DNA from: Minisyncoccota bacterium
Lineage (GTDB): Bacteria > Patescibacteriota > Minisyncoccia > Phycocordibacterales > UBA9973
DNA length: 64,000 nucleotides
NCBI GenBank assembly: GCA_035510575.1
Contig: DATKGV010000008.1
Coordinates: forward strand, 68,618-132,617
Reading direction: 5' to 3'
Numbering within the stretch: position 1 is the first letter of the stretch; each line of letters opens with the position of its first letter. The notes under the pieces were generated by a model. It worked only from the letters and a program-made list of their open reading frames with translations, did not search any database and was not told where the DNA came from. This document shows, one piece after another, positions 43,413 to 64,000 of this stretch. Both the position numbers and the translations under genes were made by a program.

Positions 43413-43470
43413 AAATATCACCTTATAAATCTACACTATCAGATACATATTCGCAAGCAAATATAAAATA

Positions 43471-43500
43471 AAAAAAGCGCTTATTTAAGCGCTTTTTTTA
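43471..43500. terminator. bidirectional rho-independent terminator
   Basis: aaaaaagcgcttatttaagcgcttttttt. Confidence 0.55.
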
Positions 43501-43501
43501 T

Positions 43502-45097: not shown

Positions 45098-45740
45098 ATA
45101 ATATAAGCTTGATGACCTTTATTATATCACATTTTTTTTGCAGATATCACGCTCTTAACTTTTGAACTATTTTATTTGAATGCAAAAGACATCAGCACGA
45201 TAGTCAAAGCGTTCAAAATTACCAACGCAAACACAAATGCTGTTTTTGAAGGCATTGCATTAGGGTTTATTAAAATATAGATTGTGTAGATTATTGCAAC
45301 AATCGCGGCACCGAGAAAGTTTCCTTTTATCATAGTTTTATAATTAGATAAGTTAATAAGACATTTGACCTTTAAAGATTATATCATTTCCTAACTGGCG
45401 GTGTACTCGGGTATGGTACCCAGAGGGTCAACCCTTGTAAGGGTATTCTAGCATATTCTCACTGCTGAAATTCAGCTTTGTGGGTCGCGGTCATAATTTC
45501 CGCAATGAGACACATGAGACACTTTTTTGGCTATTCCGCCGAGACTGTCTCGAGTGTCTCATCGCCATTTGAGCCAGATTTTTCAAGGGCTTCCTGCTCA
45601 ACTTGCATCATCAAGATGCTACAGAGCCGATCCACGAAGAATTGGCCGTCTGGCGTTTGCAGTACATTCTCGGGGGTTTGGTTGGTGGGCTTTTCCATAT
45701 AAGCCCACCATACCAAATCTCAAGATTTTTGGCACGCTCT

Positions 45741-46157
45741 CCTAATACTAGGTTTCTCTTTTTTCTCTTTCTTTTGTGTGTTAAATATTTTAACTACTTT
45801 TGGTTAAAATATTTAACCAGTTTCGGTAAAAAGATTTAACCAGTTAATTTCCTTTACCAGTTTTTCCACAGGCAATCTAGGGATTGCCCTAATACTTTGT
45901 TTCTCTTTGTTTCCTTTCTTTTGTTAGTTCGTCCCGCGTACCGATATCGGTACGTCGGACGAACCGAAAGTGGTTCGTCTGCTGAACCAGTTCGTTTGGC
46001 GAACTACTTTATCCACAGGTTCACCTAATACTTAGTTTCCTTTGTTTCTCTTTCTTTTGTGTGTCTAAATTTTAGACTACTTTCGGTCTAGTATTTAGAC
46101 CGATTTCGGTCAAGATTTTAGACTGGTCTACTACCTAGACTACTTTATCCCCGGGCT
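45741..46157. promoter_or_regulatory. three tandem ~140-bp modules, each carrying four N5-spaced inverted-repeat sites of a different specificity (GTTAA-N5-TTAAC; GTTCG-N5-CGAAC; GTCTA-N5-TAGAC); candidate operator/centromere (parS-like) or iteron array
   Basis: Modules start at 45741, 45887 and 46024, each with a conserved pyrimidine-rich header cctaatact.gtttc.cttt..tt.c.ttcttttgt. Module 1 sites include ggttaaaatatttaacc, module 2 ggttcgtctgctgaacc and agttcgtttggcgaact, module 3 ggtctagtatttagacc and gtctaaattttagac. Sites sit ~21-25 bp apart and each module ends tactttatcc. Confidence 0.7.
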
Positions 46158-46200
46158 GTAAGCTATGGATTCAACAGTCTGATTTTCGTATAATGGACAC

Positions 46201-46566
46201 ATGACAAAAGTCATATACATCACCGATATCACGCTCCACTCGAAGGACTTTCGCGCAACGCCTAGTCTCGAAAAAGCAGAGCAGAGGAAATTTGCAGGAC
46301 TGCCGTCACCGCGCTTCTATTCTGGTGCGACTAAACTCGACGCGGTCGTCGAGGGCGTGAATCCAGACGGCACGTTCGAGTTCACGATCGACCTGCCCGT
46401 CGATCTCCGCGAAGGATTAGATCGCGGCGAAATCGAGATCCGCTCGCTTCGCGCGGGAGGCATTCCAATCTACCCCGGCAAAGATCTCATTGAAAAAATG
46501 GCACAGCTAAAAAAGAAGGAACGTCGAGAGCTGATCCACCGCAGTCGAAAGTGGCAAGCAAAATAA
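46201..46566 (+). CDS. hypothetical protein (first gene of element)
   Basis: 121-aa ORF in GC-balanced codon usage immediately after the operator array. Confidence 0.4.
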   Translation: MTKVIYITDITLHSKDFRATPSLEKAEQRKFAGLPSPRFYSGATKLDAVVEGVNPDGTFEFTIDLPVDLREGLDRGEIEIRSLRAGGIPIYPGKDLIEKMAQLKKKERRELIHRSRKWQAK

Positions 46567-46667
46567 ATCGTGGTATAGTATAAGCACAACTAAAGATTAC
46601 AGGTGGCGTACCGCACTTTGTGCCATGCCCGCTTCGTAGAGAAAGCCTAAGGAATTAATCTGTCGGA

Positions 46668-48011
46668 TTGATTTTTAAGTCTTCATCGCGAGGCGGGCTT
46701 TCTTATTTATTAGCGTTAATAGATAAGCAGATGCAAAAAACAACACTAGTGTGGCACACGGAGCAACGAAAAATCTCTGACCTCGTTCCAAGCTCCATCA
46801 ACCCTCGGACTATGAGTCCGAAGCAAATTGAAGACCTCAAGCAGAGTCTTCAAAAGTTCAATCTGGTCGAAATCCCCGTCATCGACACTAATAATAATTT
46901 AATCGCAGGACATCAGCGTCTGATGGTCATGAAGCTCCTCGGGCGTGGCGAGGAGGTTATTGACGTGCGCGTGCCGAGCCGGAAGCTATCCAAAAAAGAA
47001 TACGACGCGTACCTTCTTGCCTCGAACCGAATCCACGGCGACTGGGACTGGGCAAAACTCGCCGAGAACTTTGACCTCGAGCTTCTCCTTGAAAACGGAT
47101 TTGACGATAATGACCTCACCCACATCTGGGACGAGAATCTCACCGTTGAAGATGATGAATTTGATTTAGAAAAAGAACTCGAAAAAATCAAGACGCCGAA
47201 GACGAAATACGGCGACGCATACAAGCTCGGAAATCATTTCCTGTTCTGCGGCGACAGCGGGAATCTGGAGACGGTCAGACACACCGTGCACATCAAGAAC
47301 GTGGCGATGCTCTACTTCGACCCGCCGTACAACATCTCCCTCGACTACGACAAAGGCATCGGCGGCAAAAAACACTACGGTGGGAGTGTTAACGACAGCA
47401 AGCCGGACGATGAGTACAAGGAATTCCTGAAGGATATCATCACTAACGGCCTCCTGATTTCAAACATGGATACCCATGTTTTCGTCTGGTGCGACCAACG
47501 ATACATCGGACTCGTGCAGGAAATCTACGAGGAACTCGGCATCGACAGCAAGCGGGTGTGCCTGTGGATCAAGAACGGCGCGAATCCCACGCCAGGAGTC
47601 GCGTTCAACAAATGCTATGAGCCATGCGTGTACGGCGTGCGTGGCAAGCCGTACCTTTCCGACAAAGCACTCAACCTCACGGAGATTCTGAACAAGGAAA
47701 TCGGCAACGGTAACAAAGCCATCGACGACATGCTCGACATGTTGGATATCTGGCTCGTGAAGAGAGTCACAGGATCAGAGTATCAGCATCCAACGCAGAA
47801 GCCACCGAGCCTTCACGAGAAAGCATTGAGAAGATGCACCAAGCCTGGCGACATCGTTCTCGATCTCTTTGGCGGATCGGGATCAACGCTCATCGCGTGC
47901 GAACAATTGAATCGAAGATGCCACATGGTCGAAAAGGAACCAATATTCTGCGATGTCATCATCAACCGATATGAAAAACTCACCGGCACAAAAGCAATCA
48001 AGTTCAGTTAA
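46668..48011 (+). CDS. ParB-like nuclease domain fused to beta-class N6A/N4C DNA methyltransferase
   Basis: N-terminal ParB/Srx motif (NLIAGHQRLMVMKL); methyltransferase motif IV FDPPYN followed later by motif I (DLFGGSGSTLIACEQLNRRC), i.e. beta-class order. Confidence 0.7.
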   Translation: MIFKSSSRGGLSYLLALIDKQMQKTTLVWHTEQRKISDLVPSSINPRTMSPKQIEDLKQSLQKFNLVEIPVIDTNNNLIAGHQRLMVMKLLGRGEEVIDVRVPSRKLSKKEYDAYLLASNRIHGDWDWAKLAENFDLELLLENGFDDNDLTHIWDENLTVEDDEFDLEKELEKIKTPKTKYGDAYKLGNHFLFCGDSGNLETVRHTVHIKNVAMLYFDPPYNISLDYDKGIGGKKHYGGSVNDSKPDDEYKEFLKDIITNGLLISNMDTHVFVWCDQRYIGLVQEIYEELGIDSKRVCLWIKNGANPTPGVAFNKCYEPCVYGVRGKPYLSDKALNLTEILNKEIGNGNKAIDDMLDMLDIWLVKRVTGSEYQHPTQKPPSLHEKALRRCTKPGDIVLDLFGGSGSTLIACEQLNRRCHMVEKEPIFCDVIINRYEKLTGTKAIKFS

Positions 48012-48759
48012 GCAAGGTCAGGTCTGGCAGCTCGGCAGACACCGGCTGCTTGTCGGCGATGCGCTTGATTCCGAAGGCGTGAAGAAGCTTGTCGGCGCGG
48101 ACAAGATCAATTGCATCCTCACCGATGTGCCATACGGAATATCCTACACTGAGAGCAAAGAAAACTTTGCGAGCGTGAAGGTCAACAAGAAAATCCTGAA
48201 CGACAATATTTCGGATGAAACGCAGTATCAAAAATTCATGTCGGGGTGGATCAAGAATATCCTTCCGCACATGGCGAAGAAAAACAGCATCTACATCTTC
48301 AACTGCGACAAGATGCTGTTTGCGCTCAAGGCTTCGCTTGATGAATGCAAGATATATTTCTCTCAATTGCTGATTTGGGTGAAGAATCAAGCGGTCATCG
48401 GAAGAAAGGATTACCTGCCTCAGCACGAACTCATCGTCTTCGGATGGTTCGGCACGCATACGTTCAGAAGATCGAAAGACAAAAGCGTCCTCTTCTATCC
48501 TCGTCCCACAAAAAGCTCTCTCCACCCGACCATGAAGCCGATACCGCTTCTGCGGAATCTCATTCTCAACAGCACAAGCATCAACGACATCGTGTATGAC
48601 TGCTTCCTCGGTAGCGGTTCGACATTGATCGCGTGCGAGCAGACGCACCGCACCTGCCTCGGCGTCGAGCTTGATACCGAATACTGTCAGACCGTCATGG
48701 ATCGCTTCGAGAAGCTGATGAAAATCAAACCAAAATTATTGCATGAACAAAAACACTGA
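47953..48759 (+). CDS. beta-class DNA methyltransferase (paralog of the C-terminal half of the preceding gene)
   Basis: Motif IV variant ILTDVPYGISY, motif I DCFLGSGSTLIACEQTHRTC, C-terminal EKL(T/M)..K similarity to 46668..48011; overlaps it by 59 nt out of frame. Confidence 0.65.
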   Translation: MSSSTDMKNSPAQKQSSSVKQGQVWQLGRHRLLVGDALDSEGVKKLVGADKINCILTDVPYGISYTESKENFASVKVNKKILNDNISDETQYQKFMSGWIKNILPHMAKKNSIYIFNCDKMLFALKASLDECKIYFSQLLIWVKNQAVIGRKDYLPQHELIVFGWFGTHTFRRSKDKSVLFYPRPTKSSLHPTMKPIPLLRNLILNSTSINDIVYDCFLGSGSTLIACEQTHRTCLGVELDTEYCQTVMDRFEKLMKIKPKLLHEQKH

Positions 48760-49147
48760 AGAAAACAAGAATATGCTCTTGGAACAATTGCGGAAAACGC
48801 CGATCGTCCAGATCGCGTGCGAGAAGCTCGACATTTCCCGAGCCACTTTTTACCGGTGGAAATCCGAAGACGAGGAATTTGCTACGTTAGTTGATCAAGC
48901 AGTGAGTGAAGGACGATCACTCATTAATGATGTTGCAGAATCCCAGCTCATCGGCGCGGTCAAAGACCGGAACTTGGCGGCTATCATGTACTGGCTCAAG
49001 CACCACCATGGAGATTACAAGACCAAGGTGCAGATCGACGGCAGATTGGAAACGATACACGAGCTTTCAGTTGAGCAGAAGGCATTGGTCGAACAGGCAT
49101 TAAAGTTAGCAGGCATCACGCCCGAAGAAAACAATGAAGAATCCTAG
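48743..49147 (+). CDS. terminase small subunit-like HTH protein
   Basis: 134 aa with HTH LDISRATFYRWK and a conserved helical region (IMYWLKHHHGDYKTK), directly upstream of and overlapping the large terminase. Confidence 0.4.
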   Translation: MNKNTEENKNMLLEQLRKTPIVQIACEKLDISRATFYRWKSEDEEFATLVDQAVSEGRSLINDVAESQLIGAVKDRNLAAIMYWLKHHHGDYKTKVQIDGRLETIHELSVEQKALVEQALKLAGITPEENNEES

Positions 49148-50606
49148 CAGTGACATATTGGCGAGCATTGCCAAAGACCGCACCGTCAGGCAGAGCGTTA
49201 CCAGAGAAAGTCATCTTTTCTTTTTTCTCGTGTACTTTCCTCACTATGTGAAGTACGAGGTCGCGCCGTTCCAAGACGAGATATTCGACCTGACTCAAGA
49301 CACTTCAAAGAAATTGGTCTGCATTGTCGCGTTCCGCGGCTCGGCAAAGTCCACGATCGTCACCTTTTCATACACGCTCTGGGCGATCCTCGGGAAGCAA
49401 AACAAGAAATATGTCCTCATCGTCTGCCAGACGAAAGCGCAGGCAAAACAGCATATGATGAACATCCGCTATGAACTGGAAACGAACGATCTCCTCAAGA
49501 GCGACTTGGGACCGTTCCGAGAAGAAAACGATACAGAGTGGGCATCGTCGTCGTTGGTATTTGAGAATGTCGGAGCGAGAATCACGATCGCCTCGCTTGA
49601 GCAAAGCATCCGCGGATTCAAGCACAACCAGTACCGCCCCGATCTCATTATCCTTGACGACATTGAAGACCTGAACTCGACCAAGACGCTCGACAGCAGA
49701 AACAAGACGTTTGACTGGTTCTCTCGGGAAGTTGTTCCGCTCGGAGACATTGATACCAGAATCATATTAGTAGGAAATCTACTCCACGAGGACTCGCTCA
49801 TGATGAAATTGAAAACGAAGATTGAGAAAAGAGAAATGGATGGAGTGTTTAAGTGGTATCCGCTTCTCGATGACGAGGGCAGGTGCCTGTGGCCCGGCAA
49901 GTTTGACAGGCCTGAGAAAATCGAGGCACTGAGACGAAGCGTGGCGAATGAACTGGCGTGGCAGCAGGAATATTTATTGCATATAATTTCGGATTCGACC
50001 CGCGTGATATTCCCCGAGTGGATCCAATACTATGACAATCTGCCGGAAGGAATCGAGCATGATTCGCGGGGCGTGTTCATTGGAGTGGACTTGGCGATCT
50101 CGCAAAAAGAAACGGCTGACTATACCGCAGTCGTCACCGGAGTGCTGCACCAGATCGACCGAGAATTGAAAATGTACATCCTGCCGAATCCGATCAACAA
50201 GCGGATGCCGTATCCGGAAACAGTTAATACGATACGGATGATTGCAAAGAATCTGCCGTACAACATGGAGCCATTGGTGGTGATCGAATCGAACGGCTTT
50301 CAAGAAATTTATGCCGATCAGTTGGCGGGGTCGGGAGTGTTGGTCGAAGGCGTAAAAAATACGACTGACAAGCGGTCGCGCCTTGCCATGACTTCGCATT
50401 ACATACAGACAGGCGTGATCCAATTTCCGAGAAATGGAGCAGACGAGCTTATCAACCAGCTGACGGGATTCGGGATCGAGGGGCATGACGATCTTGCCGA
50501 TGCGTTCGCGATGGCGGTGATACGGTCGCTTGATGTCTTGCAGGACAACAGGGATTTTGACGCGTGGCTAAAATTTGTGGAGGAGAATGGGGGACCTTGG
50601 ATTTGA
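49134..50606 (+). CDS. phage terminase large subunit (ATPase + RNase H-like nuclease)
   Basis: N-terminal P-loop-like FRGSAKSTIV, Walker B LIILDDIEDL, C-terminal nuclease Asp cluster (FIGVDLAISQ...DYTAVVTG...ESNGFQ...HDDLADAFAMAV). Confidence 0.65.
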   Translation: MKNPSSDILASIAKDRTVRQSVTRESHLFFFLVYFPHYVKYEVAPFQDEIFDLTQDTSKKLVCIVAFRGSAKSTIVTFSYTLWAILGKQNKKYVLIVCQTKAQAKQHMMNIRYELETNDLLKSDLGPFREENDTEWASSSLVFENVGARITIASLEQSIRGFKHNQYRPDLIILDDIEDLNSTKTLDSRNKTFDWFSREVVPLGDIDTRIILVGNLLHEDSLMMKLKTKIEKREMDGVFKWYPLLDDEGRCLWPGKFDRPEKIEALRRSVANELAWQQEYLLHIISDSTRVIFPEWIQYYDNLPEGIEHDSRGVFIGVDLAISQKETADYTAVVTGVLHQIDRELKMYILPNPINKRMPYPETVNTIRMIAKNLPYNMEPLVVIESNGFQEIYADQLAGSGVLVEGVKNTTDKRSRLAMTSHYIQTGVIQFPRNGADELINQLTGFGIEGHDDLADAFAMAVIRSLDVLQDNRDFDAWLKFVEENGGPWI

Positions 50607-50611
50607 GCTAC

Positions 50612-53302
50612 TTACGCTTTTGAGAACAGTCGCACAATTTCTTCGAAATTCTTCGCTTTATTTTCTTCCCATTCCTCTTGTTTGATATACAGAGCTTCGT
50701 AGATCATTTTACTTTGCCTGTCATTCACATCCTTACACCACTTTTGCAAACGCTCAAACTTTATTTTGTCGTCCTCATCTTCTCTGCCTTTGGTCTCAAT
50801 GATGAAAACGGTCTTATCATTTTTTTTCACAAAGAAGTCAGGATAGTACGTGGCAATAAAGCCCTCGGAATTTTTATATTCAATTCGCAGAGCATTTGCT
50901 TCTTTGTTTTGGAAGTTTTTTGCATAAGAAATTATATCGTCGCACCGCTCAAGGAAATCGGCAAAAGTGAGCTCGAAATTACTATCGCCAACGATGCGAT
51001 TGAATACGGATTTTTTCGGGATCAAAAAAGATTTGTCATTTACAACGAATGGTCGCGCTTCACTTATCTTAATGTAGTTCTTTATTTCCGTATCACCACC
51101 ATCTTTTACTGTAAGCTCATTGATGGCTTTCTTGAACTCGTCCTTGATCAGCTTAATGTATTCGACTTCGGAGAGGTTCCGTAAGAGATTAAGATCGGAT
51201 AAATTGACAGCTCCCTCAAACATATAATTCTCCACGAAATCACGCACTTTACCGAATAAGATGTCGTAGCATCCGAAAAGTCGGAGCTCTCGCATTATCG
51301 CTTGGGCGAAGAAGCCTATGACGCTTTGATAGTTTGGCTCAATATCGCCAGTGAGAACAGTCGTATGGTGCGTCTTCTCATCTACAACGTCTTTAAACAC
51401 AATTTCGCGCTTCTCTTCCTCGGAAAATATTTTTATTTTTACTCGCTTACTACCAAACATTGAAACGTTAAGCTCTGATAGATTTTTATACTCTCTCTGT
51501 ATACGCGGACTCATGACAGGGATTTCAATATCGAGCTTTTCAATATCTTTTTTTGGGTTGTCCTTGTCCACTTCCACCACCATCGGCGTAATCGGCTTGG
51601 ATCCGCTACCCATCAGTCGCTTTTCAAGAAGTACACCCTCGCCTTTAATTGATTCAACAAAATCCATAAAGGCGGGAGTGCCGATGACACTTACATACTC
51701 ATCAACATCGTCTCTTCCGAAAAACATTCGTCGCAAGCCACGACCAAGCGTCTGTTCTGGCAATATCTTTGAGTCAGAGGCATATGGGCGAAGTCCCACG
51801 ATAGTTGTGACATTTTTCACATCCCATCCTTCTTTGAGCATCATCACAGAAATAATAACTTTGAATGGACTTTCCCAACTGTCGATGTCATTTGCTTGTT
51901 TTCGCAGGATTTCAAGTTCTTCCTTATTTTTTCCAGAGATGGTTTCAGAAATCTCACCACTTTTATTAGTATGAATTGTGAGGACTCCACCTTTTAGATC
52001 AGCGAAGCTCGTCTCAAGATATTGCGCTACTTCATCGCAGTTCTGAGTATCATCAGTCATTATGAACAATATAGATTTCTTACCTACAGGTTTGAGCGTC
52101 TCGTACGACTTCTTCCATTCTTCCACTCCAAGATTTATATAATCCCTGTATTTCTCACTGAACAGTGTGCTCTGGTTCGGCTTGAGTTTGCCACGGCTCG
52201 CTTCGTCCGGGACGACGGGATTTTTGACTATTCTCTGGTGTATTGCCTCAACAAGTGGATAGTCAGAAATCGTCTGTACGAAAATTGAGCCGTCCGTCTT
52301 CTTCGGTGTTGCAGTTACATCGAGTTGGAGCGACAACCCAGTACCTTTTTGTTTGAGGCGGTTGTCTATGTCTTGGATTGATTTGAACCAAGCGAGCTTC
52401 TCGTCGTGGATATGGTGTGCTTCGTCGTTAATGACGATCAACTCGTCTATATCTCGCACAATCATTCCCAAATCAACGGTAGAGTCATTCGTTTTCGTGA
52501 CAGGCTTTTCACCAAGGAAATACTGGGAAGCATCCTCGTCTTCTAGGGTTGCCTCTTTTGTGTCGCCTTCAAACACGCGATGGATATTTGTGAGGAATAT
52601 ATTACCTGTGTCTGAAATACCTCGCAGTGCATCTTGGAGGTGAAGTGTTACTTGAAAATCATCATGCCAGTTCTGTCCTCGATATCCATTATCAGGAAGT
52701 ACAGGATCTTCAAAAAATATGTTCAATCCTTCAAAATCTTTTTTTATTCGTTCAAAAACGATAACATTCGGAGTTATTAAAAGAAAGTTTTTTGCCAGCT
52801 TGGAGTCAGTTTCATAAAGTTTGTGAAAATACGCCCACGCGACGATCAAGCTCATAACTTTTGTCTTACCTGCCCCTGTCGCCATTTTTATCACGAAACG
52901 GAGCCAGTCCTCTGTGAACATTTGTGGAGAGAGTACGCCAGTCGAGTTGTATCTGATGAGATCGTATTTATCCTTTACTTGGGCAACCTCATAAAGCCAG
53001 ACAACTGTCTCCAGCGCTTCGCGCTGGGCGAAGTAGTATCGGAAATTATACGTAGTTCCATCTTTGTCAGCTAAAATATGTTCTTCTTTGAACCACCAGT
53101 TAAGCAATGCTATTGAAGTATCACTTGCTCCCTTGTAATTCTGGTCTCGCCACTCTTTTACTTTCTTTCGTAATTCCGCAACAAGAGGTGGAAGAAGTTT
53201 CTCATATCCTCGCTCGCGCAGATCCTCGGCAGCAGGAAACCACCGGATGCTCGGGTCGAGTATTTCAAATGGGTCTTTGGGAAAATCTTTATGTAGTGCC
53301 AT
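50612..53302 (-). CDS. res: Type III restriction endonuclease Res subunit (SF2 helicase + PD-ExK nuclease)
   Basis: Walker A TGAGKTKVMS, DEAH box VINDEAHH, helicase motif VI, C-terminal PD..ExK (YYPDFFV...IIETKG); lies immediately downstream of the mod gene on the same strand. Confidence 0.7.
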   Translation of the reverse strand: MALHKDFPKDPFEILDPSIRWFPAAEDLRERGYEKLLPPLVAELRKKVKEWRDQNYKGASDTSIALLNWWFKEEHILADKDGTTYNFRYYFAQREALETVVWLYEVAQVKDKYDLIRYNSTGVLSPQMFTEDWLRFVIKMATGAGKTKVMSLIVAWAYFHKLYETDSKLAKNFLLITPNVIVFERIKKDFEGLNIFFEDPVLPDNGYRGQNWHDDFQVTLHLQDALRGISDTGNIFLTNIHRVFEGDTKEATLEDEDASQYFLGEKPVTKTNDSTVDLGMIVRDIDELIVINDEAHHIHDEKLAWFKSIQDIDNRLKQKGTGLSLQLDVTATPKKTDGSIFVQTISDYPLVEAIHQRIVKNPVVPDEASRGKLKPNQSTLFSEKYRDYINLGVEEWKKSYETLKPVGKKSILFIMTDDTQNCDEVAQYLETSFADLKGGVLTIHTNKSGEISETISGKNKEELEILRKQANDIDSWESPFKVIISVMMLKEGWDVKNVTTIVGLRPYASDSKILPEQTLGRGLRRMFFGRDDVDEYVSVIGTPAFMDFVESIKGEGVLLEKRLMGSGSKPITPMVVEVDKDNPKKDIEKLDIEIPVMSPRIQREYKNLSELNVSMFGSKRVKIKIFSEEEKREIVFKDVVDEKTHHTTVLTGDIEPNYQSVIGFFAQAIMRELRLFGCYDILFGKVRDFVENYMFEGAVNLSDLNLLRNLSEVEYIKLIKDEFKKAINELTVKDGGDTEIKNYIKISEARPFVVNDKSFLIPKKSVFNRIVGDSNFELTFADFLERCDDIISYAKNFQNKEANALRIEYKNSEGFIATYYPDFFVKKNDKTVFIIETKGREDEDDKIKFERLQKWCKDVNDRQSKMIYEALYIKQEEWEENKAKNFEEIVRLFSKA

Positions 53303-53303
53303 A

Positions 53304-56019: not shown

Positions 56020-56895
56020 ATGACAAAACACAAGTTCACATTTGCAGAATTACCAATAGGTCAGGTCGCCCGAGATCCGAATCAACCGAGAAAAGACTTC
56101 GGAGCCGAAGGCGAGAAAAACAAGTTAAAATTATCAATCAAGAACTACGGAATCGAGGAGCCGATTAAAGTAAGCGAAATATCAGACAAGCGCTTTATTA
56201 TTATTGACGGACATCGTCGCTTCATATGTGCCCAGAAGCTTGGCATGAAGACGGTGCCTTGTCGCATCTATCCCAAGATGACGGACGGCGAGTTCGAGAC
56301 GAGACGTTACGAAATGCAAAACAATCGTCGTGCATGGAATCCGCTTGAACGCTCTGAAGCATTGGAGCGAATCAAGTACTCGTATGGGTTCAAGAACAAC
56401 CACGAGCTTGCCGATTACCTTGGCATGAGCAGATCATCTGTACAACTCGCAATGCAAATGAGAAAGCAGAGAATATCGAACTTAACAATGATGGAGAGAT
56501 ATAATGTACCGAAAAGCGTCCGTATGTCGATGCTCAACATCTTCAAGAAGCTCCGTAAGATCAAGAAACTTGAAGTCGATGACATCATCGAAGTCATATT
56601 CGAGAAGATCGACAAGAAAGTGATTACAAAATCGCTCGACATCCGCAAGATTGGCAAAGCGTTCATGCAAGCGACGATTAATGAGGATGAGCTGTACCAG
56701 TTTTTGACGAAGCCCGATATGACAGCGAATGAGCTCGAACAGCGTACGCGCCAGACAGGATTCGCGCTCATGTGTGGAGATCTCATCAAGAAGATTACTC
56801 AGAAAAAAGAGAATGGAACATCGTATACCAAGAACGAAAAAGCCTCTCTCGTTCAACTCCAAGCCCTTATCAGGAAAACTATAAAAGTCGCATAA
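56020..56895 (+). CDS. ParB-like N-terminal domain protein
   Basis: ParB/Srx core FIIIDGHRRFICAQKLG with upstream EPIKVS segment; 291 aa. Confidence 0.6.
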   Translation: MTKHKFTFAELPIGQVARDPNQPRKDFGAEGEKNKLKLSIKNYGIEEPIKVSEISDKRFIIIDGHRRFICAQKLGMKTVPCRIYPKMTDGEFETRRYEMQNNRRAWNPLERSEALERIKYSYGFKNNHELADYLGMSRSSVQLAMQMRKQRISNLTMMERYNVPKSVRMSMLNIFKKLRKIKKLEVDDIIEVIFEKIDKKVITKSLDIRKIGKAFMQATINEDELYQFLTKPDMTANELEQRTRQTGFALMCGDLIKKITQKKENGTSYTKNEKASLVQLQALIRKTIKVA

Positions 56896-56899
56896 TACT

Positions 56900-58288
56900 A
56901 TGGCAATATCTGTACCCACAAACAAAAAAGCCGTAGCGTATTATCGTCATTCTGCAAAAGATAAACAAGAAAATTCAGTTGCCATCCAACAAGGACATAC
57001 TCAAGCATTTGCCGCAACTCACAAAATAGAGATTATTCACGAAGAAGCAGATGAGGGTGAAAGCGGACTATCGGCCGATCGACCCGGATATCAGCGATTA
57101 TTCGATGAATGGATAACAAACCCCCTCGCCCCCGCCTTTGACTACGTCTTCGTATACGATGTCTCCCGTTGGGGACGATTTCAGGACCAAGACGAGGCGG
57201 CGCATTATGAATATCTTTGTAAGCAGCACGGTAAGAAAGTTGTTTACGTTTCGCAGGGCTTTCCTAAAGAAGATGAACAACTCATCTCCACACTTCAAAC
57301 ATCAATCGGTCGATACATGGCCGCCGAGTACTCGCGCCAGTTAAGCGGTAAAGTCTGGCACGGATGCGTCAAAGTTTCAGAGCAAGGATTTTCTGCCGGA
57401 GGACAGCCTCCATATGGGATGAGCCGATTACTTCTTGGCGAAGACAAGAAGCCAGTAAAGAAACTCAAACGAGGTCAATGGAAATCCATATCAAACGAGC
57501 GCGTCACATTCGCCCCTGCCGACGACGGAACAGCGGAGATAGTCAAAGACATGTATTCAATGCTCGTCGAGAAATGGGAATCGCCCCAGTCGATCGCCGA
57601 CATATTGAACGAGCGAGGCATTCCGACAGTGCAGGGTAAGAAATGGAAATCAAGCGGGGTGCTCAATATCCTCACTAACGAGGTATATACAGGAACCCGA
57701 ATTTACAACAAGACTTGGGGTCGATTGAAGCAAAAACATCGTGCTAATCCACGAAGCGAGTGGGTTATTCAGCCAAATGCGTTTGAAGGAATCATATCGT
57801 CTGAAATATTCAACGCCGCGCAAGACCGTCTGTACTGGCTCATGCCAAGCAAATGGCAAAAGGGCGCATACACGGTGCGAAAAGCGCGGCGTGGACTGCA
57901 AGCCGAAATCACGACCTTGCTCATGAGCAAAGGAATGGAAATCGACGACGCGGACATGGCGGTACGGAAATTGCCCATGGCGATCGGCGCACGGTTCACC
58001 GTCGAGGGTGTAGCCAACTGGTGCTTCACAGTGAAAGAATATATGAAGAATTATGACTACATCATCGGCGTAAGCGTCGCAACAGATCGGCATGATCCTG
58101 TTGATAGGTTCTTCTGGATTCCCATCAGCACATTTGACGGCACGGACTATGTGGTATTCTCGGAGAAAGATGACTGCTATCACACTTCGAGTATTCCGAG
58201 TGGCGAGGTTCAGAAAAGGATTCTGTCCTTGTTGCCTGATCTTAAATTATTTAGCGATTTACCTATAATAATTCCGCCAACAGAATAA
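56900..58288 (+). CDS. large serine recombinase (resolvase N-terminal catalytic domain + recombinase domain)
   Basis: N-terminal KAVAYYRHSAKDKQ (catalytic Ser context), ...VFVYDVSRWGR, recombinase domain (PYGMSRLLLGEDKKP); 462 aa. Confidence 0.7.
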   Translation: MAISVPTNKKAVAYYRHSAKDKQENSVAIQQGHTQAFAATHKIEIIHEEADEGESGLSADRPGYQRLFDEWITNPLAPAFDYVFVYDVSRWGRFQDQDEAAHYEYLCKQHGKKVVYVSQGFPKEDEQLISTLQTSIGRYMAAEYSRQLSGKVWHGCVKVSEQGFSAGGQPPYGMSRLLLGEDKKPVKKLKRGQWKSISNERVTFAPADDGTAEIVKDMYSMLVEKWESPQSIADILNERGIPTVQGKKWKSSGVLNILTNEVYTGTRIYNKTWGRLKQKHRANPRSEWVIQPNAFEGIISSEIFNAAQDRLYWLMPSKWQKGAYTVRKARRGLQAEITTLLMSKGMEIDDADMAVRKLPMAIGARFTVEGVANWCFTVKEYMKNYDYIIGVSVATDRHDPVDRFFWIPISTFDGTDYVVFSEKDDCYHTSSIPSGEVQKRILSLLPDLKLFSDLPIIIPPTE

Positions 58289-58344
58289 AAAGAATTAGAA
58301 TTATTGACTGGACTTATTTACGATCTTGCGTCATCTAATAGAGT

Positions 58345-58668: not shown

Positions 58669-58765
58669 TTATAAAAAATTGCGCGAACTCGCTTCGCGAG
58701 TAAATGCCAAAGGGTCAAAGAATCCAAGAGCCAAAGAATCAGAAAAATACAAAGAGGCAATAGGT

Positions 58766-60607
58766 CTAAGATTCAGACTTGCGGAGACGGAAAGCGAACT
58801 CACTGTCCGGATGCCACTCGAGGCCGGGCGTCGCCCAATAGTTGTCCAGCCACAAACCGTCACCGTCGCGCACGAGGCGGAAGACGAACGGGTAGCCGCC
58901 AGAGTCAGCGATTTGTTTCATTCCAATACGCACCCATTCATTTAGAGGTTGATTCCTGTATTTAAGGCGATAGTTAGGGCCAGTATCAGGAGGACACAAT
59001 TCCAAGCCGAGCGTTTGTGCGCGTTCGTAAATTTGGTCAGTGGTAGCACTTGTTTTGAAACCAAGGTCAGCAACAGTAAGGCGGATAAGTGTTGCTTCTT
59101 CACGCTTTTTACCTGGAATGAAGTCACGATTCTTCATCATAGATTTTGCGTAGTCGGAAATATTGATGTGGGCTGCTTCCATTTCAGCAATCAATTGTTC
59201 GGCCGTCTTTCCACCTATCTCGACATTTTCTCTGCGAATTTTCTTGTCTGGGAACGAGGTGTATACATGCTCAAGACCTTCTGGCAATCTTTGGAAGATG
59301 CCTGGCTCAAGCTGTCCAACATACGCCTTTGTATCTTTTGTTATCTGGCTTGGAACGTGAGCAATTTCTTCCTTAGTACATGCAAAAATAACAAGCATGT
59401 CTTCCTCTGTATTTCTGCCAGCGCGAAGCTCGGCAATACGCGGATCGGTTTGGTATCCGAAACCTTCGATGGACGAGTTAATTTCATAGAGAAATACAAG
59501 ATCATCTTTGGTAAATGGTTCTTCTTGTTCGCGCTTTTGATCAAGAGCAGTCAGTATTTTCATGTCTCCACTTTTCTTTCGGTACGCATCTGCTTCGGTT
59601 CCGAAATCTTGGAGTTTTTCATCAAGTGCTTCCTGCATGATTGGTTCTACGCCTTGGTGCGGAAGAATACCACGCACTTCGCCAATTCTATTGTCACCCT
59701 CCATACGGATCGCAAGACGAGGTTGGGTTGGTTCGCCGTTTGAATCATTCGTGTAATAAACATAAAAGTCGCCATTCTCTATTTGTGTTTCTGCTGTCGA
59801 TTTACCGGCAGTACACCAACCAGTTCCTTTTCCTTCGAGTGATTCAAAAAGTTGCTCGGCGTCACCGCTTTGTCCCTGTTGGTATTTTTTCCATTCACCT
59901 TTGACCTCCTCACGGTTCTCCATTGAGGCAGCAAGAGATTTTGAGATGAGTTCAGCGTATAAGCTCGGAAACTTTTGAGAAAAAGCTTCGCGCACCTCTG
60001 GTTCTTTGAGATTTTTGTTATCTTCTTTTACTTTGAAATATATGTCGGCAATTTGCGCGAGTGGTTCGCGATAGATATCGGGATATGGTGCAACAGTACT
60101 ATCGGTACGCTTTTTGAACTCGCCACGCTCTTTGTCGAATTGGGAAAGTTTGGTGATATTTTTCCAAACAAAGTATTTGAACCATGCAGGATACATGGCA
60201 TCGTCTGAAGTAAGGTACTCCATCCACGCATTAAGCGATGCTCGCTGGTCTTCGATGGCAACATCCATCATTTGTTCACGGACATTGTCAGGGATTTCCT
60301 CTACTGCTTGTCCACGCTCGCGAGCGATGCGCTTTTGCAGTTCAAAATATGATTCAGGAAAATTCTCCTTTTTTATAATGAATGCGTCATATATTTTGTC
60401 GCGAAACATTTCGAGATTGCGTTCACGTTTCTTTTCATCAGGATTGAGAAAAACATTCTCCAAACGATCCATATAGGCTTCGATACGCTCGGAAGGATCA
60501 TTCGGCATTTTTTCGCCAGTCTGTCGCTCTTCTCGCACAACGGCTCGATTTACCTCGGGAGAAGTTTGAAGTTCCGGGCTTTTCATGTGGAGCGGGTGCT
60601 TTTCCAT
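58766..60607 (-). CDS. DGR target protein: 613-aa cytoplasmic protein with C-terminal variable region (CLec-like ...GLWLDNYWATPGLEWHPDSEFAFRLR)
   Basis: The last ~42 codons, immediately before the stop, form the VR matching the TR at 60902-61029; no signal peptide or TM; the N-terminal ~570 aa have no recognised domain. Confidence 0.7.
   Translation of the reverse strand: MEKHPLHMKSPELQTSPEVNRAVVREERQTGEKMPNDPSERIEAYMDRLENVFLNPDEKKRERNLEMFRDKIYDAFIIKKENFPESYFELQKRIARERGQAVEEIPDNVREQMMDVAIEDQRASLNAWMEYLTSDDAMYPAWFKYFVWKNITKLSQFDKERGEFKKRTDSTVAPYPDIYREPLAQIADIYFKVKEDNKNLKEPEVREAFSQKFPSLYAELISKSLAASMENREEVKGEWKKYQQGQSGDAEQLFESLEGKGTGWCTAGKSTAETQIENGDFYVYYTNDSNGEPTQPRLAIRMEGDNRIGEVRGILPHQGVEPIMQEALDEKLQDFGTEADAYRKKSGDMKILTALDQKREQEEPFTKDDLVFLYEINSSIEGFGYQTDPRIAELRAGRNTEEDMLVIFACTKEEIAHVPSQITKDTKAYVGQLEPGIFQRLPEGLEHVYTSFPDKKIRRENVEIGGKTAEQLIAEMEAAHINISDYAKSMMKNRDFIPGKKREEATLIRLTVADLGFKTSATTDQIYERAQTLGLELCPPDTGPNYRLKYRNQPLNEWVRIGMKQIADSGGYPFVFRLVRDGDGLWLDNYWATPGLEWHPDSEFAFRLRKSES
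58782..58909 (-). repeat. DGR variable repeat (VR)
   Basis: Its reverse complement aligns over 128 nt with TR (60902-61029). There are 21 mismatches, all at TR adenine positions (e.g. TR aac/VR ttc, aac/cgc, gaa/gtg, aat/tat, aaa/acg), and the flanks are identical. Confidence 0.8.
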
Positions 60608-60895
60608 ATATGGTTCGCATTATAGCATAAATTACTGCGAAATAAAGAGGTTTTTGGTATACTATTTTCAGATTGGTTTCATTGAACGGCTACGGTTTTT
60701 CAAGACCAATTTACTTCGTGTAGATTGAGAGCGCGAACGGTTATGGCTTTTCGCGGAGGATGTACATAGAGGTCTTTAAAAAGAAAAAACTTGGTGCGAC
60801 GCGCTGGTTGATTTTCGATCACGCATAACAATACAGCACGGCTTCTGGCACATTTATGTGCGCCTAAGTCGGCGGTGACATGGATGGCGTGCCGC

Positions 60896-61029
60896 ACAAA
60901 CGCTGACTCTGACGGCAACCCGAACGTCTTCAACCTCGAACGCAACGATGACGGTTTGTGGCTGAACAACAATTGGGCGAAACCCGACAACGAGTGGAAT
61001 CCGGACAATAAGTTCGCTTTCCGTCTCCG
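60896..61029 (+). repeat. DGR template repeat (TR)
   Basis: Adenine-rich (many AAC/AAT codons) copy of VR, lying between the target gene and avd/RT; it is followed at 61044-61075 by the hairpin ccgcgac...gtcgcgg and a T-run. Confidence 0.8.
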
Positions 61030-61057
61030 AAACTATTTTCTTTTCCGCGACCTCATG

Positions 61058-61465
61058 TTACATGTCGCGGTTTTTCTTTTCAGGGTTGGCAAGATTCTTC
61101 TTCCAGCCACCAAACATCTTGCCGACTTCTTCGAGTTTCAATGCCACGTTCTCGCAGTGAGCGTTTGAAATAAGCTTGCCCTCCCATGCAACAGAGACAA
61201 GAAACTTTAGTGTGTCCAACACCAAAATGCATTCAGTAATTTTTTCCTCTTTCTTCTCTTTTTCGATAAAATATGCGATGTATGACAATTCAAGCAGATC
61301 GAGAAACTTGTTCTCAATCCGTGAGCCGATTGTATAGCGTGCGCCTTTAGCAATATGCGGAACAATATTAACCCAAATCAAATACCCCTCTTTGATCTTG
61401 TTGAGGATCGAAGCGTTGTTGGTGTGCGAAAGTCGGGGGGGGGGGAGATTTGTCGCTCGGTTCAT
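61058..61465 (-). CDS. avd: Avd-like accessory variability determinant (four-helix-bundle protein); 5' end uncertain
   Basis: IVPHIAKGARYTIGSRIENKFLDLLELSYIAYF...ITECILVLDTLKFLVSVAWEGKLISNAHCENVALKLEEVGKMFGGWKKN matches the helix and length pattern of Bordetella phage bAvd; the annotated N-terminal 10 aa cross a C11 homopolymer. Confidence 0.6.
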   Translation of the reverse strand: MNRATNLPPPRLSHTNNASILNKIKEGYLIWVNIVPHIAKGARYTIGSRIENKFLDLLELSYIAYFIEKEKKEEKITECILVLDTLKFLVSVAWEGKLISNAHCENVALKLEEVGKMFGGWKKNLANPEKKNRDM

Positions 61466-62449
61466 ATCTACAATAATATCATTTCTGTGGAAAACTTACT
61501 CGTCGCATGGCGAGAATTCCTTCATGGAAAACGGAGCCGTAAAGACGTTGCCCAATTTTCAGTTCATCTGACCGATAATATACTTGCCCTCCATCGCGAA
61601 CTCGTCGATAAGACCTACCATCACGGTCTGTACAAAGCTTTTCGTATCAACGATCCCAAACCGCGTGATATTCATAAGGCGAGTGTTCGCGATCGGTTAC
61701 TTCACCATGCTATTTATAGGATTTTGTATCCCTACTTTGATCCTAAGTTTATTTTTGATTCGTATTCATGTCGGCGTGGTAAAGGCACGCACCGCGCGCT
61801 TGATAGATTTCGAGACTATGCCCGCAAAGTTTCTAAAAATCATACTCAGACAGTGTGGGTCTTGAAATGCGATATCAGAAAGTTTTTTGCAAACATTGAT
61901 CACACAATTTTAGAAGATATTTTGAAGCGTCGCATGGGAGACGAAGATGTCATTCAACTTTTTCGAGAAATTGTTGGCAGTTTTAATACCAAAGACAAGG
62001 ATGGTGTAGGATTACCTCTCGGTAATCTCACTAGCCAGCTTTTGGTAAATATTTATATGAACGAGTTTGATCATTTTCTCAAACGAGATTTGAAAGTTGA
62101 ATATTGCGTTAGGTACGCGGACGATTTTGTTATTCTGCACACAGACAAAAAATATTTAGAAAACGTCTTGCCAAAAATATCTGCATTTTTAGAAACAAGA
62201 CTCAAGCTATCCCTTCATCCTGATAAGGTGTTTATAAAAACATTCGCCTCGGGCGTAGACTTTCTTGGTTGGGTACATTTTCCACATCATCGTGTGCCGA
62301 GGACATCCACGAAAAAGAGAATGTTCAGAAATTTAAATCAAAACTCAAAAAAGGAATCACTAAGTTCCTACGCAGGGCTTCTGAGTCATGGCGATACACA
62401 TGAATTACGAGAGACAATATTTAAGAAGTATTCTGATAAGAAAATCTGA
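61355..62449 (+). CDS. DGR reverse transcriptase; 5' end uncertain (probably begins after the G11 tract, near 61455)
   Basis: RT motifs: ENLLVAWREFLHGKR (start of DGR RT core), motif 4 GLPLGNLTSQLLVNIY with the DGR-specific SQ, motif 5 VRYADDFVIL (YADD), ~330-aa core size. Confidence 0.8.
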   Translation: MRNNINPNQIPLFDLVEDRSVVGVRKSGGGEICRSVHIYNNIISVENLLVAWREFLHGKRSRKDVAQFSVHLTDNILALHRELVDKTYHHGLYKAFRINDPKPRDIHKASVRDRLLHHAIYRILYPYFDPKFIFDSYSCRRGKGTHRALDRFRDYARKVSKNHTQTVWVLKCDIRKFFANIDHTILEDILKRRMGDEDVIQLFREIVGSFNTKDKDGVGLPLGNLTSQLLVNIYMNEFDHFLKRDLKVEYCVRYADDFVILHTDKKYLENVLPKISAFLETRLKLSLHPDKVFIKTFASGVDFLGWVHFPHHRVPRTSTKKRMFRNLNQNSKKESLSSYAGLLSHGDTHELRETIFKKYSDKKI

Positions 62450-62523
62450 CCTTTTAGTTACCAACACCTACCACTCGGGACGCTCTGGACTCCTAGGGCG
62501 AGTTGCGTCATTCCTTGTAGTGT

Positions 62524-63867
62524 ATGAACCATACACAAACACAAGCGCCATTAGGGACTACGGCCAAAGTAGTAGTCCCCACAAAGGTAAAATACTGCCT
62601 TTACGCAAGAAAAAGTACGGAAAGTGAGGAACGCCAAGTGCTGTCCATAGACAGCCAGATCAAAGAGATGCTCCAATTGGCGGAGCGCGAGGGTCTTGAG
62701 ATCGTGACCATGAAGCGCGAGAGTCACAGCGCGAAAGAGACCGGCCAGCGTCCAGTCTTCAACGAGATCGTGGATGAAATCAAACAGGGCAAGTTTAACG
62801 GCATCCTGACATGGGCACCGGATCGAATCAGCAGAAACGCGGGCGACCTCGGGAAGATCGTCGACCTGATGGATGCCGGAAAACTGCATCAGATACGCAC
62901 CTTCGGGCAGACGTTCGGTAACAATCCGAACGAGAAATTCCTACTGATGATTCTCGGCTCGCAGGCGAAACTCGAAAACGACAACCGAGGCATCAACGTG
63001 AAGCGCGGACTGCGGACAAGAGTGGAGATGGGATTGTGGCCAGGCATGGCACCGCTTGGGTACCTGAATCAGAAGATGCTCGATCGTAAATGCCAGATTG
63101 CAATAGATCCTGACCGCGCGCCGATCGTCCGGAAAATGTTCGAGAAAGTAGCCCACGAGGGATGGAGCGGACGAAAGGTGTACAACTGGCTTCGGTTCGA
63201 CCTGAACTTCCATACGAGAGGACACAAGCCACTAACGCTCTCCGGTGTGTATCGAATATTCAATATGCCAATTTACTACGGGCCATTCGAGTACCCGAGA
63301 GACAGCGGCAACTGGTACGACGGAAAACATGAGCCGATCATCACCAAGGAATTATATGAGAAAGCGCAGGAACAGCTGAAGCGAGATAAGATCGTCAGAG
63401 AGAATCGGGAGTTCGCTTTTACAAAATTATTTACCTGCGGCATGTGCGGCTCGGGAATCACGGCGCAGGAGAAATATAAGGAGCTGAAAGACACGACGAC
63501 CGCCAAGTACGTCTACTACTCCTGCTCGAAAGCGAGAGATCGTAATTGCAAGAACAAGTACATCCGCGAGGAAGAACTGATCGAGGAACTTTTCAAAGTC
63601 ATTGACAAAGTGAGCATCAACGAACTGGGAATGCGAATGAAGCTCGAGGAAGAAATCAAGCGATTCAATCGGCTACAGCGACTTGCAACCAAAGGCACGC
63701 CGAAATATTCAATCAACGAGGACGATGTGAATACAAGAGAGTATGCAAAATACGTCCTGCGCGAGGGCACGCCGCTTGAGAAGCGCGAGCTGATGGGACA
63801 TCTGCGAAGCAGACTGGTGCTCAAGGACAAGAGAATTACGCTCCTTCAGGAAAGAGAGGAAAAATAA
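62524..63867 (+). CDS. large serine recombinase with C-terminal zinc-ribbon
   Basis: N-terminal YCLYARKSTESEERQVLSIDSQ catalytic region, ...GILTWAPDRISRN, recombinase domain, CGMCGSGI...YYSCSKARDRNC zinc ribbon, coiled-coil tail. Confidence 0.7.
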   Translation: MNHTQTQAPLGTTAKVVVPTKVKYCLYARKSTESEERQVLSIDSQIKEMLQLAEREGLEIVTMKRESHSAKETGQRPVFNEIVDEIKQGKFNGILTWAPDRISRNAGDLGKIVDLMDAGKLHQIRTFGQTFGNNPNEKFLLMILGSQAKLENDNRGINVKRGLRTRVEMGLWPGMAPLGYLNQKMLDRKCQIAIDPDRAPIVRKMFEKVAHEGWSGRKVYNWLRFDLNFHTRGHKPLTLSGVYRIFNMPIYYGPFEYPRDSGNWYDGKHEPIITKELYEKAQEQLKRDKIVRENREFAFTKLFTCGMCGSGITAQEKYKELKDTTTAKYVYYSCSKARDRNCKNKYIREEELIEELFKVIDKVSINELGMRMKLEEEIKRFNRLQRLATKGTPKYSINEDDVNTREYAKYVLREGTPLEKRELMGHLRSRLVLKDKRITLLQEREEK

Positions 63868-63877
63868 ATCGTTGAGG

Positions 63878-64000
63878 TTATGATCTCTTTTTCTTCACAG
63901 AAACCTTCTTGGCTTTCGTAGTAGATTTCTTCTTCGCTGTCTTTCTTGAGGAAGTCTTTTTCTTCGGATTCTTTTGAGCTGGAGTAAAGCAGTCGAGAAC
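63878..64000 (-). CDS. 3' end of a minus-strand gene entering from beyond the window (Lys-rich C-terminal tail)
   Basis: Reverse-complement translation gives ...KKKTSSRKTAKKKSTTKAKKVSVKKKRS* with a stop at 63878-63880; the rest of the gene lies outside the window. Confidence 0.3.
   Translation of the reverse strand, partial: VLDCFTPAQKNPKKKTSSRKTAKKKSTTKAKKVSVKKKRS

Follow-up and report, generated by a model that had tools for sequence, protein, structure and literature searches.

Phage-inducible chromosomal islands (PICIs), among them the Staphylococcus aureus pathogenicity islands (SaPIs), are islands of ~10–20 kb with an integrase at one end, a divergent repressor, a small terminase subunit (TerS) of their own and accessory cargo, and they carry no virion genes. 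Here we describe an island of similar form in a Patescibacteria (candidate phyla radiation, CPR) chromosome. It occupies the right part of a 64,000-nucleotide stretch of contig DATKGV010000008.1 (assembly GCA_035510575.1; hereafter the window, in whose coordinates positions are given) and encodes TerS together with a large terminase subunit (TerL), large serine recombinases (LSRs), a restriction-modification (R-M) system and a diversity-generating retroelement (DGR). We propose, with moderate confidence, that it is an actively mobile, site-specific island that would use its own terminase to package itself into the capsids of a helper phage, much as a satellite does.

PICIs have a tyrosine integrase, a primase and replication origin, TerS (or Rpp) without TerL, and an Stl-type repressor, whereas the island described here has TerS and TerL, a large serine recombinase, no replication module and, in its family, a repressor of the LexA/S24 type, and its hosts are CPR bacteria. 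Capsid-forming PICIs (cf-PICIs) resemble it in encoding both TerS and TerL; cf-PICIs also encode capsid, portal, protease and head-tail connectors, none of which is present in this island. The PICI-like elements (PLEs) of Vibrio cholerae depend on RepA for their replication and are not known to carry a terminase. These satellite-like islands are reported to be integrated by a large serine recombinase (PMC6002521). PLE sequences are unrelated to those of our island, and the class of integrase is the only feature that the two have in common.

The nearest cultured relatives of the island TerL, which matches phrog_38, are only 26–28% identical to it and are those of Mannheimia phage 3927AP2 and Pseudomonas phages JBD30, MP42 and JBD69, which we take to be Mu-like or D3112-like transposable phages. 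Phages of this kind carry portal and head genes after TerL and move by transposition, whereas the island has a serine recombinase. There is also a likeness to the defence hotspots of P2- and P4-type elements and to defence islands on mobile elements, in which a conserved backbone flanks slots that swap R-M and other defence systems between near-identical elements. The backbone and the host phylum are different, however, and the three slots of the present family take up DGRs and metal-resistance operons as well. Judged by analogy, the island appears to be most like a PICI/SaPI-type satellite among the known systems.

An earlier annotation of the window, made by a model from the letters and their open reading frames (ORFs) alone (the sequence-only reading), had described positions 45400–64000 as a foreign element with a terminase pair, ParB-domain proteins, methyltransferases, a type III R-M system, two large serine recombinases and a DGR, and had suggested a prophage, a phage-plasmid or a satellite of a CPR-like host. 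Every gene that it named was recovered, at the same position, by our scans with profile hidden Markov models (HMMs).

The island is bounded by direct repeats beside tRNA-Ser

The left 45 kb of the window consists of Patescibacteria chromosome genes, including dnaA, dnaN, yidC, ruvABC, polA, PBP1, tyrS and components of a type IV secretion system (T4SS), namely PrgI and a VirB4/TraG-like ATPase. The host of the island is a Patescibacteria (Paceibacteria, CPR) chromosome, in agreement with the CPR-like host proposed before, and identical proteins are deposited publicly under the name Candidatus Paceibacterota. At the left junction, contigs from two other sequencing runs cross from host into island at 100% identity (L090/L103, covering 43385–47822, and L100, covering 45277–53298).

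The sequence-only reading had held that the element could be classified only with sequence past 64 kb. We extended the window to ~68.9 kb with two overlapping contigs from other samples, L001 (JGI) and L181 (from a metagenome scan), all overlaps being 100% identical. L001 matches the window over 61445–64000, its first 83 nt being a poly-C artefact at a tract of 12 G residues (G12), and L181 shares 1081 identical bases with L001. In this composite of overlapping contigs the island spans 45,402 to ~68,065 (22,664 bp), and the extension added the right end and one more gene.

Both ends carry the 11-bp direct repeat TGTACTCGGGT, the right copy lying at ~68,055–68,065, outside the window; we take it as the core of the attachment (att) sites. 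No string longer than this repeat is shared by the two junction zones, and 11 nt was reached in only 1 of 300 shuffles. A 10-mer of this core is also found in other relatives, at the left ends of L177 and L025 and, next to the tRNA, at the right ends of L155 and L066. Positions 45398–45488 are 79% identical to the left end of L177, whose recombinase belongs to the same 90%-identity cluster as LSR2, the presumed integrase of our island; this homology begins at GCGGTGTACTCGGG, exactly at the repeat, and the flanks to its left are unrelated. Past the right repeat come a tRNA-Ser(tga) gene on the minus strand (~68116–68201) and then host genes, including a YqgF/RuvX-like ORF, with the element ending ~50 nt from the 3′ end of tRNA-Ser(UGA). 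The closest relatives of LSR2 (~70–76% identity) are also followed by tRNA-Ser(tga) on the minus strand. The predicted attP junction is CGCAACCTTGTA-TGTACTCGGGT-ATGGTACCCAGAGG, and the predicted empty attB site is TCCTAACTGGCGG-TGTACTCGGGT-CGCACTGCTCAGTCG. The element is a complete, repeat-bounded mobile island, site-specifically integrated beside tRNA-Ser.

Other placements of the ends were considered and rejected. Pairwise homology between close relatives stops within ~30 nt of the recombinase stop codon, as if this were the last gene, but right-end blocks, tRNAs and a third slot lie beyond it. Four independent contigs end at 45528–45534, where the variable left cargo slot starts, but the direct repeat and the homology to L177 place the left end at 45,402. 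The likeness of 45,386–45,440 to the left block of a group of relatives at tRNA-Gln was not significant when compared with shuffles. No fragment of tRNA-Ser was found at the left end, after LSR1 (the other large serine recombinase) or after TerL. A metagenome scan with 45,500–45,528 gave no match, and terminal repeats, the mark of circular contigs, were absent from the related short contigs.

The island encodes a terminase and a presumed integrase but no virion genes

Among the 16 genes of the 22.7-kb element, there was no match to portal, HK97-fold capsid, tail or lysis genes, four small or unknown ORFs being undecidable by sequence; the absence of structural genes, noted earlier for the window, extends to the whole element. 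HMM scans of the element found neither ParA nor Rep, and no primase, helicase-primase or Rep domain is present in the element or in the backbone of its family. The two ParB domains have other partners: one is the N terminus of a methyltransferase that always lies ahead of TerS and TerL, and the other is paired with a recombinase of its own, LSR1. Because it lacks ParA as well as genes for portal, capsid, tail, lysis and replication functions, the island is neither a complete prophage nor a phage-plasmid. Compared with complete tailed prophages (Caudoviricetes), it has the large terminase without the virion and lysis genes. With PICIs and SaPIs it shares a site-specific integrase (here of the serine type) with att repeats, a TerS of its own and the absence of virion genes, but not the primase or replication initiator and the origin. 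With cf-PICIs it shares TerS and TerL only, without capsid, portal or connector genes.

The TerL is clearly predicted to be functional, as its Walker A (RGSAKST) and Walker B (DLIILDDIED) motifs and the acidic residues of its nuclease are at least 95% conserved across 84 homologues with ~50% overall identity. LSR2 has the three domains of a recombinase of integrative elements: the resolvase domain, which carries the catalytic serine nucleophile, the recombinase domain and the zinc ribbon. Its YARKST catalytic motif is kept in 61 homologues, and it is related to SPbeta SprA/YokA. LSR2 is of the type that is usual in the family and is the presumed integrase of the island.

The GC content at third codon positions (GC3) is 0.59–0.65 in the core genes, compared with a host mean of 0.38 (range 0.18–0.52), and the difference between block and host is significant (Mann-Whitney p = 4e-5). 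The block is the foreign mobile element that it had been taken to be. The statement that every gene from 46201 onward has GC-balanced codons applies to the core genes but not to Res (0.44), Mod (0.40), the DGR target (0.42) or the DGR reverse transcriptase (0.37), which are host-like, and values for ParB2, LSR1 and Avd are intermediate. The composition of the block is a mosaic, with cargo that is partly host-like. The features of the island are listed in Table 1.

Table 1. Features of the island, in order along the window
Feature	Position	Strand	Remarks
attL core TGTACTCGGGT	45402..45412	+	left copy of 11-bp direct repeat
Conserved left terminal block	45389..45530		homology to L177; presumed P′ arm of attachment site
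orf61	45531..45716	-	61-aa ORF in left cargo slot; GC3 0.60, like core; no Pfam match
Three tandem ~140-bp units	45728..46150	+	upstream of packaging operon
u121	46201..46566	+	121 aa; first gene of packaging operon; kept in place in 36 related loci
ParB_N and N6/N4 methyltransferase fusion	46668..48011	+	Pfam N6_N4_Mtase 8.9e-28; phrog_498 1.5e-93; phrog_620 ParB-like 4e-24
Second N6/N4 DNA methyltransferase	47953..48759	+	Pfam 1.7e-30; phrog_498 5.4e-74
TerS	48743..49147	+	helix-turn-helix (HTH) type; five TerS PHROGs, best 1.3e-10; HTH_Tnp_1_2 2.4e-7; in 81 related loci
TerL	49134..50606	+	phrog_38 1.9e-80; Pfam weak
Type III Res	53302-50612	-	ResIII 2e-15; REase_III 2.5e-19
Type III Mod	55562-53304	-	PADLOC MTase_III 3.6e-114
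ParB2	56020..56895	+	ParB_N and CI-type HTH (Pfam)
LSR1	56900..58288	+	Pfam; two domains, motif YYRHS; abuts ParB_N-HTH gene
DGR target	58766..60607	-	613 aa; no signal peptide; variable repeat near gene 3′ end
Variable repeat (VR)	58779-58913		at 3′ end of minus-strand target; 135-nt repeat shared with TR
Template repeat (TR)	60898..61032	+	84% identical to VR over 135 nt
Avd	61058..61465	-	bAvd 4.9e-12
DGR reverse transcriptase (RT)	61487..62449	+	RVT_1 8.8e-24; phrog_1423 5.5e-110; start as in L001
LSR2	62524..63867	+	Resolvase, Recombinase, Zn_ribbon_recom
1361-aa STAND-like cargo gene	63878 to ~67,963	-	3′ end in window (63878..64000); only further gene past window

Related islands are widespread in Patescibacteria

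Searching with TerL among contigs from one genome per species in GTDB, we found 187 relatives, of which the best 80 (50–60% identity) were analysed; a further 70 related loci came from IMG/VR, giving a total of ~150. ORFs were called in all loci and then clustered, and relatives were viewed mostly within ±10 kb of TerL. The best 80 of the 187 are nearly all from Patescibacteria (Paceibacteria, Saccharibacteria, Gracilibacteria, Moranbacteria, Nomurabacteria and others). Complete genomes such as CP175956.1 and OY970175.1 are among those that carry the island. Conservation is limited to six families: TerL (87 loci), the ParB-methyltransferase (82 loci, TerS always downstream), TerS (81), LSR2-type recombinases (66, that is, 66 of the 80 genome relatives), an S24 repressor (41) and u121 (36). 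The next-largest family, the R-M methylase Mod, is found in 14 loci. The repressor, a LexA/S24-type protein of 215 aa (Peptidase_S24 2.3e-27), is encoded on the minus strand, divergent from the operon.

The backbone has a fixed order. It begins with the left terminal block and the left slot, often followed by the LexA/S24 repressor, and with u121 or a winged-helix regulator; then come the ParB_N-methyltransferase, TerS, TerL, the middle slot, the LSR, the right slot and the tRNA. The 70 IMG/VR loci have the same architecture, and the island described here conforms to it in its ordered backbone, its left block and the tRNA at its right end, the LexA-like repressor excepted.

Several relatives could be delimited. 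A set of six elements with 72–94% nucleotide identity shares a ~300-bp left block and a conserved right block that stops at the 3′ end of tRNA-Gln, while the left slot holds SMODS with an effector, TIR with a caspase-like protein or other genes and the right slot holds differing R-M systems. The delimited relatives at tRNA-Gln (L056, at 4132–17767, L042 and L077) are 13.6–15.1 kb long, with the end blocks kept and the cargo swapped, and no virion or replication genes were found in those that are fully delimited. Tandem arrays occur in L051 and at L056, which has the right end of a further copy in its left flank, and one metagenome-assembled genome (MAG) has two copies of the island. A variant of our own island, L105 from sample WOOD18-1, is 99.9% identical to the window from 45799 rightwards; to the left of this point, the start of a gene for a secreted beta-helix-like protein replaces orf61 and the first palindrome of the repeat array described below, in what appears from the sequences to be a live case of cargo-slot exchange. 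From the repeated copies, the tandem arrays and the different cargo of copies that are otherwise nearly identical, we conclude that mobility is ongoing. Samples that hold our own island include SRR8693975, SRR8676595, JGI 3300038473/3300014502 and ERZ28653749.

In the 80 genome loci, the ±10 kb around TerL holds no conserved family of portal, capsid, tail, lysis or replication genes, and none was seen in the 70 IMG/VR loci. PHROG scans of 83 proteins encoded between TerL and the recombinase and of 94 large left-flank proteins matched helicases, methylases, nucleases, RT and Avd, Sie-like proteins, NUDIX proteins and integrases. No head or tail PHROG was present among the listed middle-slot families, and the sole virion-related matches, a weak “tail protein” (2 of the 94 proteins, 2e-08) and an endolysin, were both in left flanks.

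Across the family, the cargo includes R-M systems, DGRs, Sie-like proteins, nucleases, SMODS and TIR. The right slot often holds ArsR/ArsD/ArsA, a P-type ATPase, DsbA and a multicopper oxidase (eight loci, including L177:11396-21332), and from this content the family appears to spread arsenic and heavy-metal resistance besides defence genes. In seven loci, two tandem TerL paralogues, each ~47–50% identical to the query, lie between TerS and the recombinase. The module is also held by MAGs labelled as Gammaproteobacteria, Bdellovibrionales and Methanoregula (L019, L021/L037, L023, L025, L029, L067 and L079). These are most likely mis-binned CPR contigs, but they may instead reflect exchange of the module between CPR episymbionts and the cells on which they live. 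Dozens of family contigs of 4–20 kb (within L003–L007 and L111–L175) are catalogued as viral in IMG/VR, have no virion genes and apparently owe this label to TerL alone. We did not find a published account of capsid-less, LSR-integrated Patescibacteria islands with TerS and TerL, but our coverage of the literature was incomplete and an earlier description is possible.

A proposed satellite-like mode of transfer and its alternatives

How might such an island move between cells? Of the three possibilities raised by the sequence-only reading, a satellite is the best candidate; the mobility and gene content of the island are shown, and the capture of helper capsids is inferred. If the island is a satellite, LSR2 would integrate and excise it at the site close to tRNA-Ser. 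Induction in most relatives would follow cleavage of the LexA-like repressor, in an SOS-type response, and in this copy the triplicated operator array may take part. Upon induction, the island TerS would recognize island DNA, and TerL, which appears to be under strong purifying selection, would pump this DNA into procapsids of a putative helper phage, allowing the island to spread as a phage satellite. The cargo might meanwhile shield both the host and the island from other phages.

Several findings weigh against such a role. No candidate helper phage was found; the relatives recovered with TerL of at least 42% identity are all islands and include no portal-bearing phage, and even the nearest cultured phage TerLs are distant from that of the island. 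Unlike PICIs, P4 and PLEs, the island has no replication module in its backbone that would make concatemers for a headful-type terminase. A scan of IMG/VR for the circular (attP) junction gave no match, and the empty attB site was not recovered. A homologue of the LexA-like repressor is absent from the 69 kb searched around this copy. Finally, the right 4.9 kb of the extended sequence is taken from contigs of other samples, identical in their overlaps, and not from the window's own contig, and the flanks of most relatives were seen only to ±10 kb.

One alternative is that the island is a domesticated or decaying prophage remnant, left by a temperate phage that lost its virion genes. What remained, the packaging module and the integrase, would then serve only to hold defence cargo, and the element would no longer be packaged. 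In favour of this are the lack of structural, lysis and replication genes and the mosaic composition with host-like cargo, and the “viral” label of its relatives in IMG/VR probably comes from TerL only. We nonetheless consider it unlikely. Independent decay is not expected to converge on a single architecture, yet one minimal gene set, with the same order and the same ends, recurs in ~150 loci over many CPR classes; TerS and TerL are intact, with strongly conserved catalytic motifs; and the multiple copies, tandem arrays and swapped cargo of near-identical copies speak for continued movement.

It is also conceivable, and marginally less probable than a remnant, that this is a defence or resistance island in which the terminase module is an anti-phage device, cutting or mis-packaging phage DNA or competing for procapsids, and which spreads by other routes, such as natural transformation or the kind of T4SS-like system that many CPR bacteria have. 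Defence genes are carried in all three cargo slots, the backbone has no replication genes, and the host part of the window encodes T4SS components. However, there is no relaxase or oriT-type gene, we found no precedent for a purely defensive TerS-TerL pair, and the presence of an island-specific TerS beside an integrase is a classic hallmark of elements that are transferred by packaging.

Could the capsid and tail genes instead lie elsewhere in the chromosome, co-regulated with the island, as in a split prophage or a gene transfer agent (GTA)? Split GTA clusters are known in other bacteria, and our view was restricted to ±10 kb for each relative and to 69 kb around this copy. We regard this arrangement as improbable, as none of these flanks has a conserved head or tail family, the left 45 kb holds housekeeping and T4SS genes, and a mobile, multi-copy island with its own integrase is a poor fit to a chromosomally fixed GTA.

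A phage-plasmid or a complete temperate phage, as the terminase pair, the two ParB-domain proteins and the recombinases had suggested to the sequence-only reading, is more improbable still. The island is integrated between direct repeats beside a tRNA; the complete 22.7-kb element, like the delimited relatives, is without virion genes, and ParA and a replication initiator are also absent; and its ParB domains are the N terminus of a methyltransferase and the partner of LSR1. Provided that the composite extension is correct, this copy can be neither a phage-plasmid nor a complete prophage. A chimera of a CPR chromosome and unrelated phage DNA, created in assembly or binning, would explain the step in composition at ~45.4 kb and the many short contigs that break near 45.53 kb, but is hardly credible, as the left junction is found with 100% identity in two independent assemblies, the right junction leads back to a tRNA and host genes, and the contig breaks fall on the edge of a variable cargo slot.

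To return to the satellite-like island, a further and tentative step, which we think possible but would not call probable, is that it represents the founding example of a CPR-specific class of satellites, defined by a complete terminase with its ParB-methyltransferase and by a serine integrase, to which an SOS-type repressor is usually added, and which has shed capsid, tail, lysis and replication genes. If so, the islands would parasitize CPR phages, adding a layer of parasitism to a group of which many members are inferred to be episymbionts, and would carry metal resistance, STAND proteins, DGRs and R-M systems from one ultra-small bacterium to another. With its three different palindromes, the operator array could then let one island respond to, or be recognized by, several partners. 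If the terminase does hijack helper capsids, the satellite concept would gain a type with TerS and TerL that has neither capsid genes nor a replication module, and the matching of TerL to portal proteins would provide a handle for finding CPR helper phages.

CPR bacteria make up a large share of bacterial diversity, but little is known of their phages and mobile elements. With its fixed backbone for packaging and integration and its three exchangeable slots, a family that occurs in at least 187 species-level genomes would offer a route for the exchange of defence and resistance genes among reduced genomes. Scoring of these islands as viral contigs in IMG/VR inflates the counts of CPR viruses and of host-virus links. 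In addition, the defined 11-bp core beside tRNA-Ser makes LSR2 a candidate integrase for the genetic manipulation of organisms in which such tools are lacking.

The packaging operon and its probable operator array

The genes of the packaging operon overlap tightly. The start codon of the ParB_N-methyltransferase is uncertain, and gene callers give alternative starts at 46731 and 46812. The first gene, u121, has no match in Pfam, PHROG or PADLOC, and an AF2 model of its product (pLDDT 75) matched no fold in the PDB. A perfect TATAAT lies 6 nt before the u121 ATG (window 46189–46203), with no Shine-Dalgarno sequence. Because the promoter motif is this close to the ATG and a Shine-Dalgarno sequence is lacking, the sequence suggests that the transcript of the operon is leaderless.

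Upstream of the operon, each of the three tandem units starts with a pyrimidine-rich head, CCTAATACTnnGTTTCyyTTT...CTTTTGT, followed by three to four 15-bp palindromes of the form GTnnnn-N3-nnnnAC with a spacing of 23-23-17. The layout is the same in every unit and the palindrome is swapped, from GTTAAA-N3-TTTAAC to GTTCGT-N3-ACGAAC and GTCTAA-N3-TTAGAC. The head motif occurs three times, where none is expected. The array was absent from the 95 other loci compared and had no match in Rfam; the sole Rfam match in 43–64 kb was the host tRNA-Arg. The array probably serves as an operator or recognition region and is a candidate for TerS or ParB binding sites.

Cargo

The mod and res genes are adjacent and co-oriented and encode a type III methyltransferase and a ResIII helicase-nuclease, as expected of a complete type III R-M system. 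Homologous systems (59–84% identity) are carried as cargo by several relatives (L120/L159, L127/L168, L158 and L167), either before or after the recombinase. In the host part of the window, two large ORFs of 490 and 898 aa (1809–5971), upstream of the PrgI/VirB4-like T4SS genes, have no Pfam match; they match TerL and Res in length only, and a cross-comparison of the sequences gave no match.

A pair like the ParB_N-HTH protein and LSR1 (39% and 48% identity) adjoins tRNA-Ser in an IMG/VR contig (L110/L156), where it lies outside a TerL element, and the pair is absent from the 80 genome relatives. The two genes are probably a second integrative module, nested in the middle cargo slot.

The 1361-aa protein encoded in the right slot has an N-terminal NACHT-like P-loop (GEPGIGKT), a DUF8371 domain (PF28130), a C-terminal PD-(D/E)xK-like motif and a lysine-rich tail. 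Its match to Pfam NACHT (6e-5) is below the curated cut-off, and PADLOC gave no match to this DUF8371/STAND protein. On the basis of its domains, it is a candidate defence protein.

The diversity-generating retroelement

DGR clade 2 comprises the cellular DGRs of Patescibacteria (Roux et al. 2021, PMC8144416). Like these, the element in the island combines an RT, Avd and a TR/VR pair with adenine-specific changes and a C-terminal variable region, in a CPR genome. It differs in being cargo of a mobile island with a terminase, in the inversion of TR relative to VR and in the divergence of avd from the RT gene. TR and VR have ~21–23 differences, every one at an adenine of TR, and VR lies at the 3′ end of the target gene. 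With RT and Avd also present, the DGR is complete and is predicted to diversify the C terminus of a cytoplasmic 613-aa protein.

The layout of the element is unusual. The avd and RT genes are divergent, with start codons ~21 nt apart, and this arrangement is common to relatives; TR is downstream of avd yet on the strand of the RT gene, and so is inverted with respect to VR and the target. The G12 homopolymer (61435–61446), at which L001 breaks into its poly-C artefact, lies inside the 5′ end of avd, where it encodes a run of prolines on the minus strand. Slipped-strand mispairing in this tract could switch Avd and DGR activity on and off, or the tract may simply be difficult to sequence. Lastly, the palindrome GTCTAAGATTCAGAC (58764–58778) lies immediately 3′ of VR, where it includes part of the target stop codon, and is one base off the operator palindrome of unit C; it may be a VR-flanking hairpin, as in other DGRs, or a coincidence.

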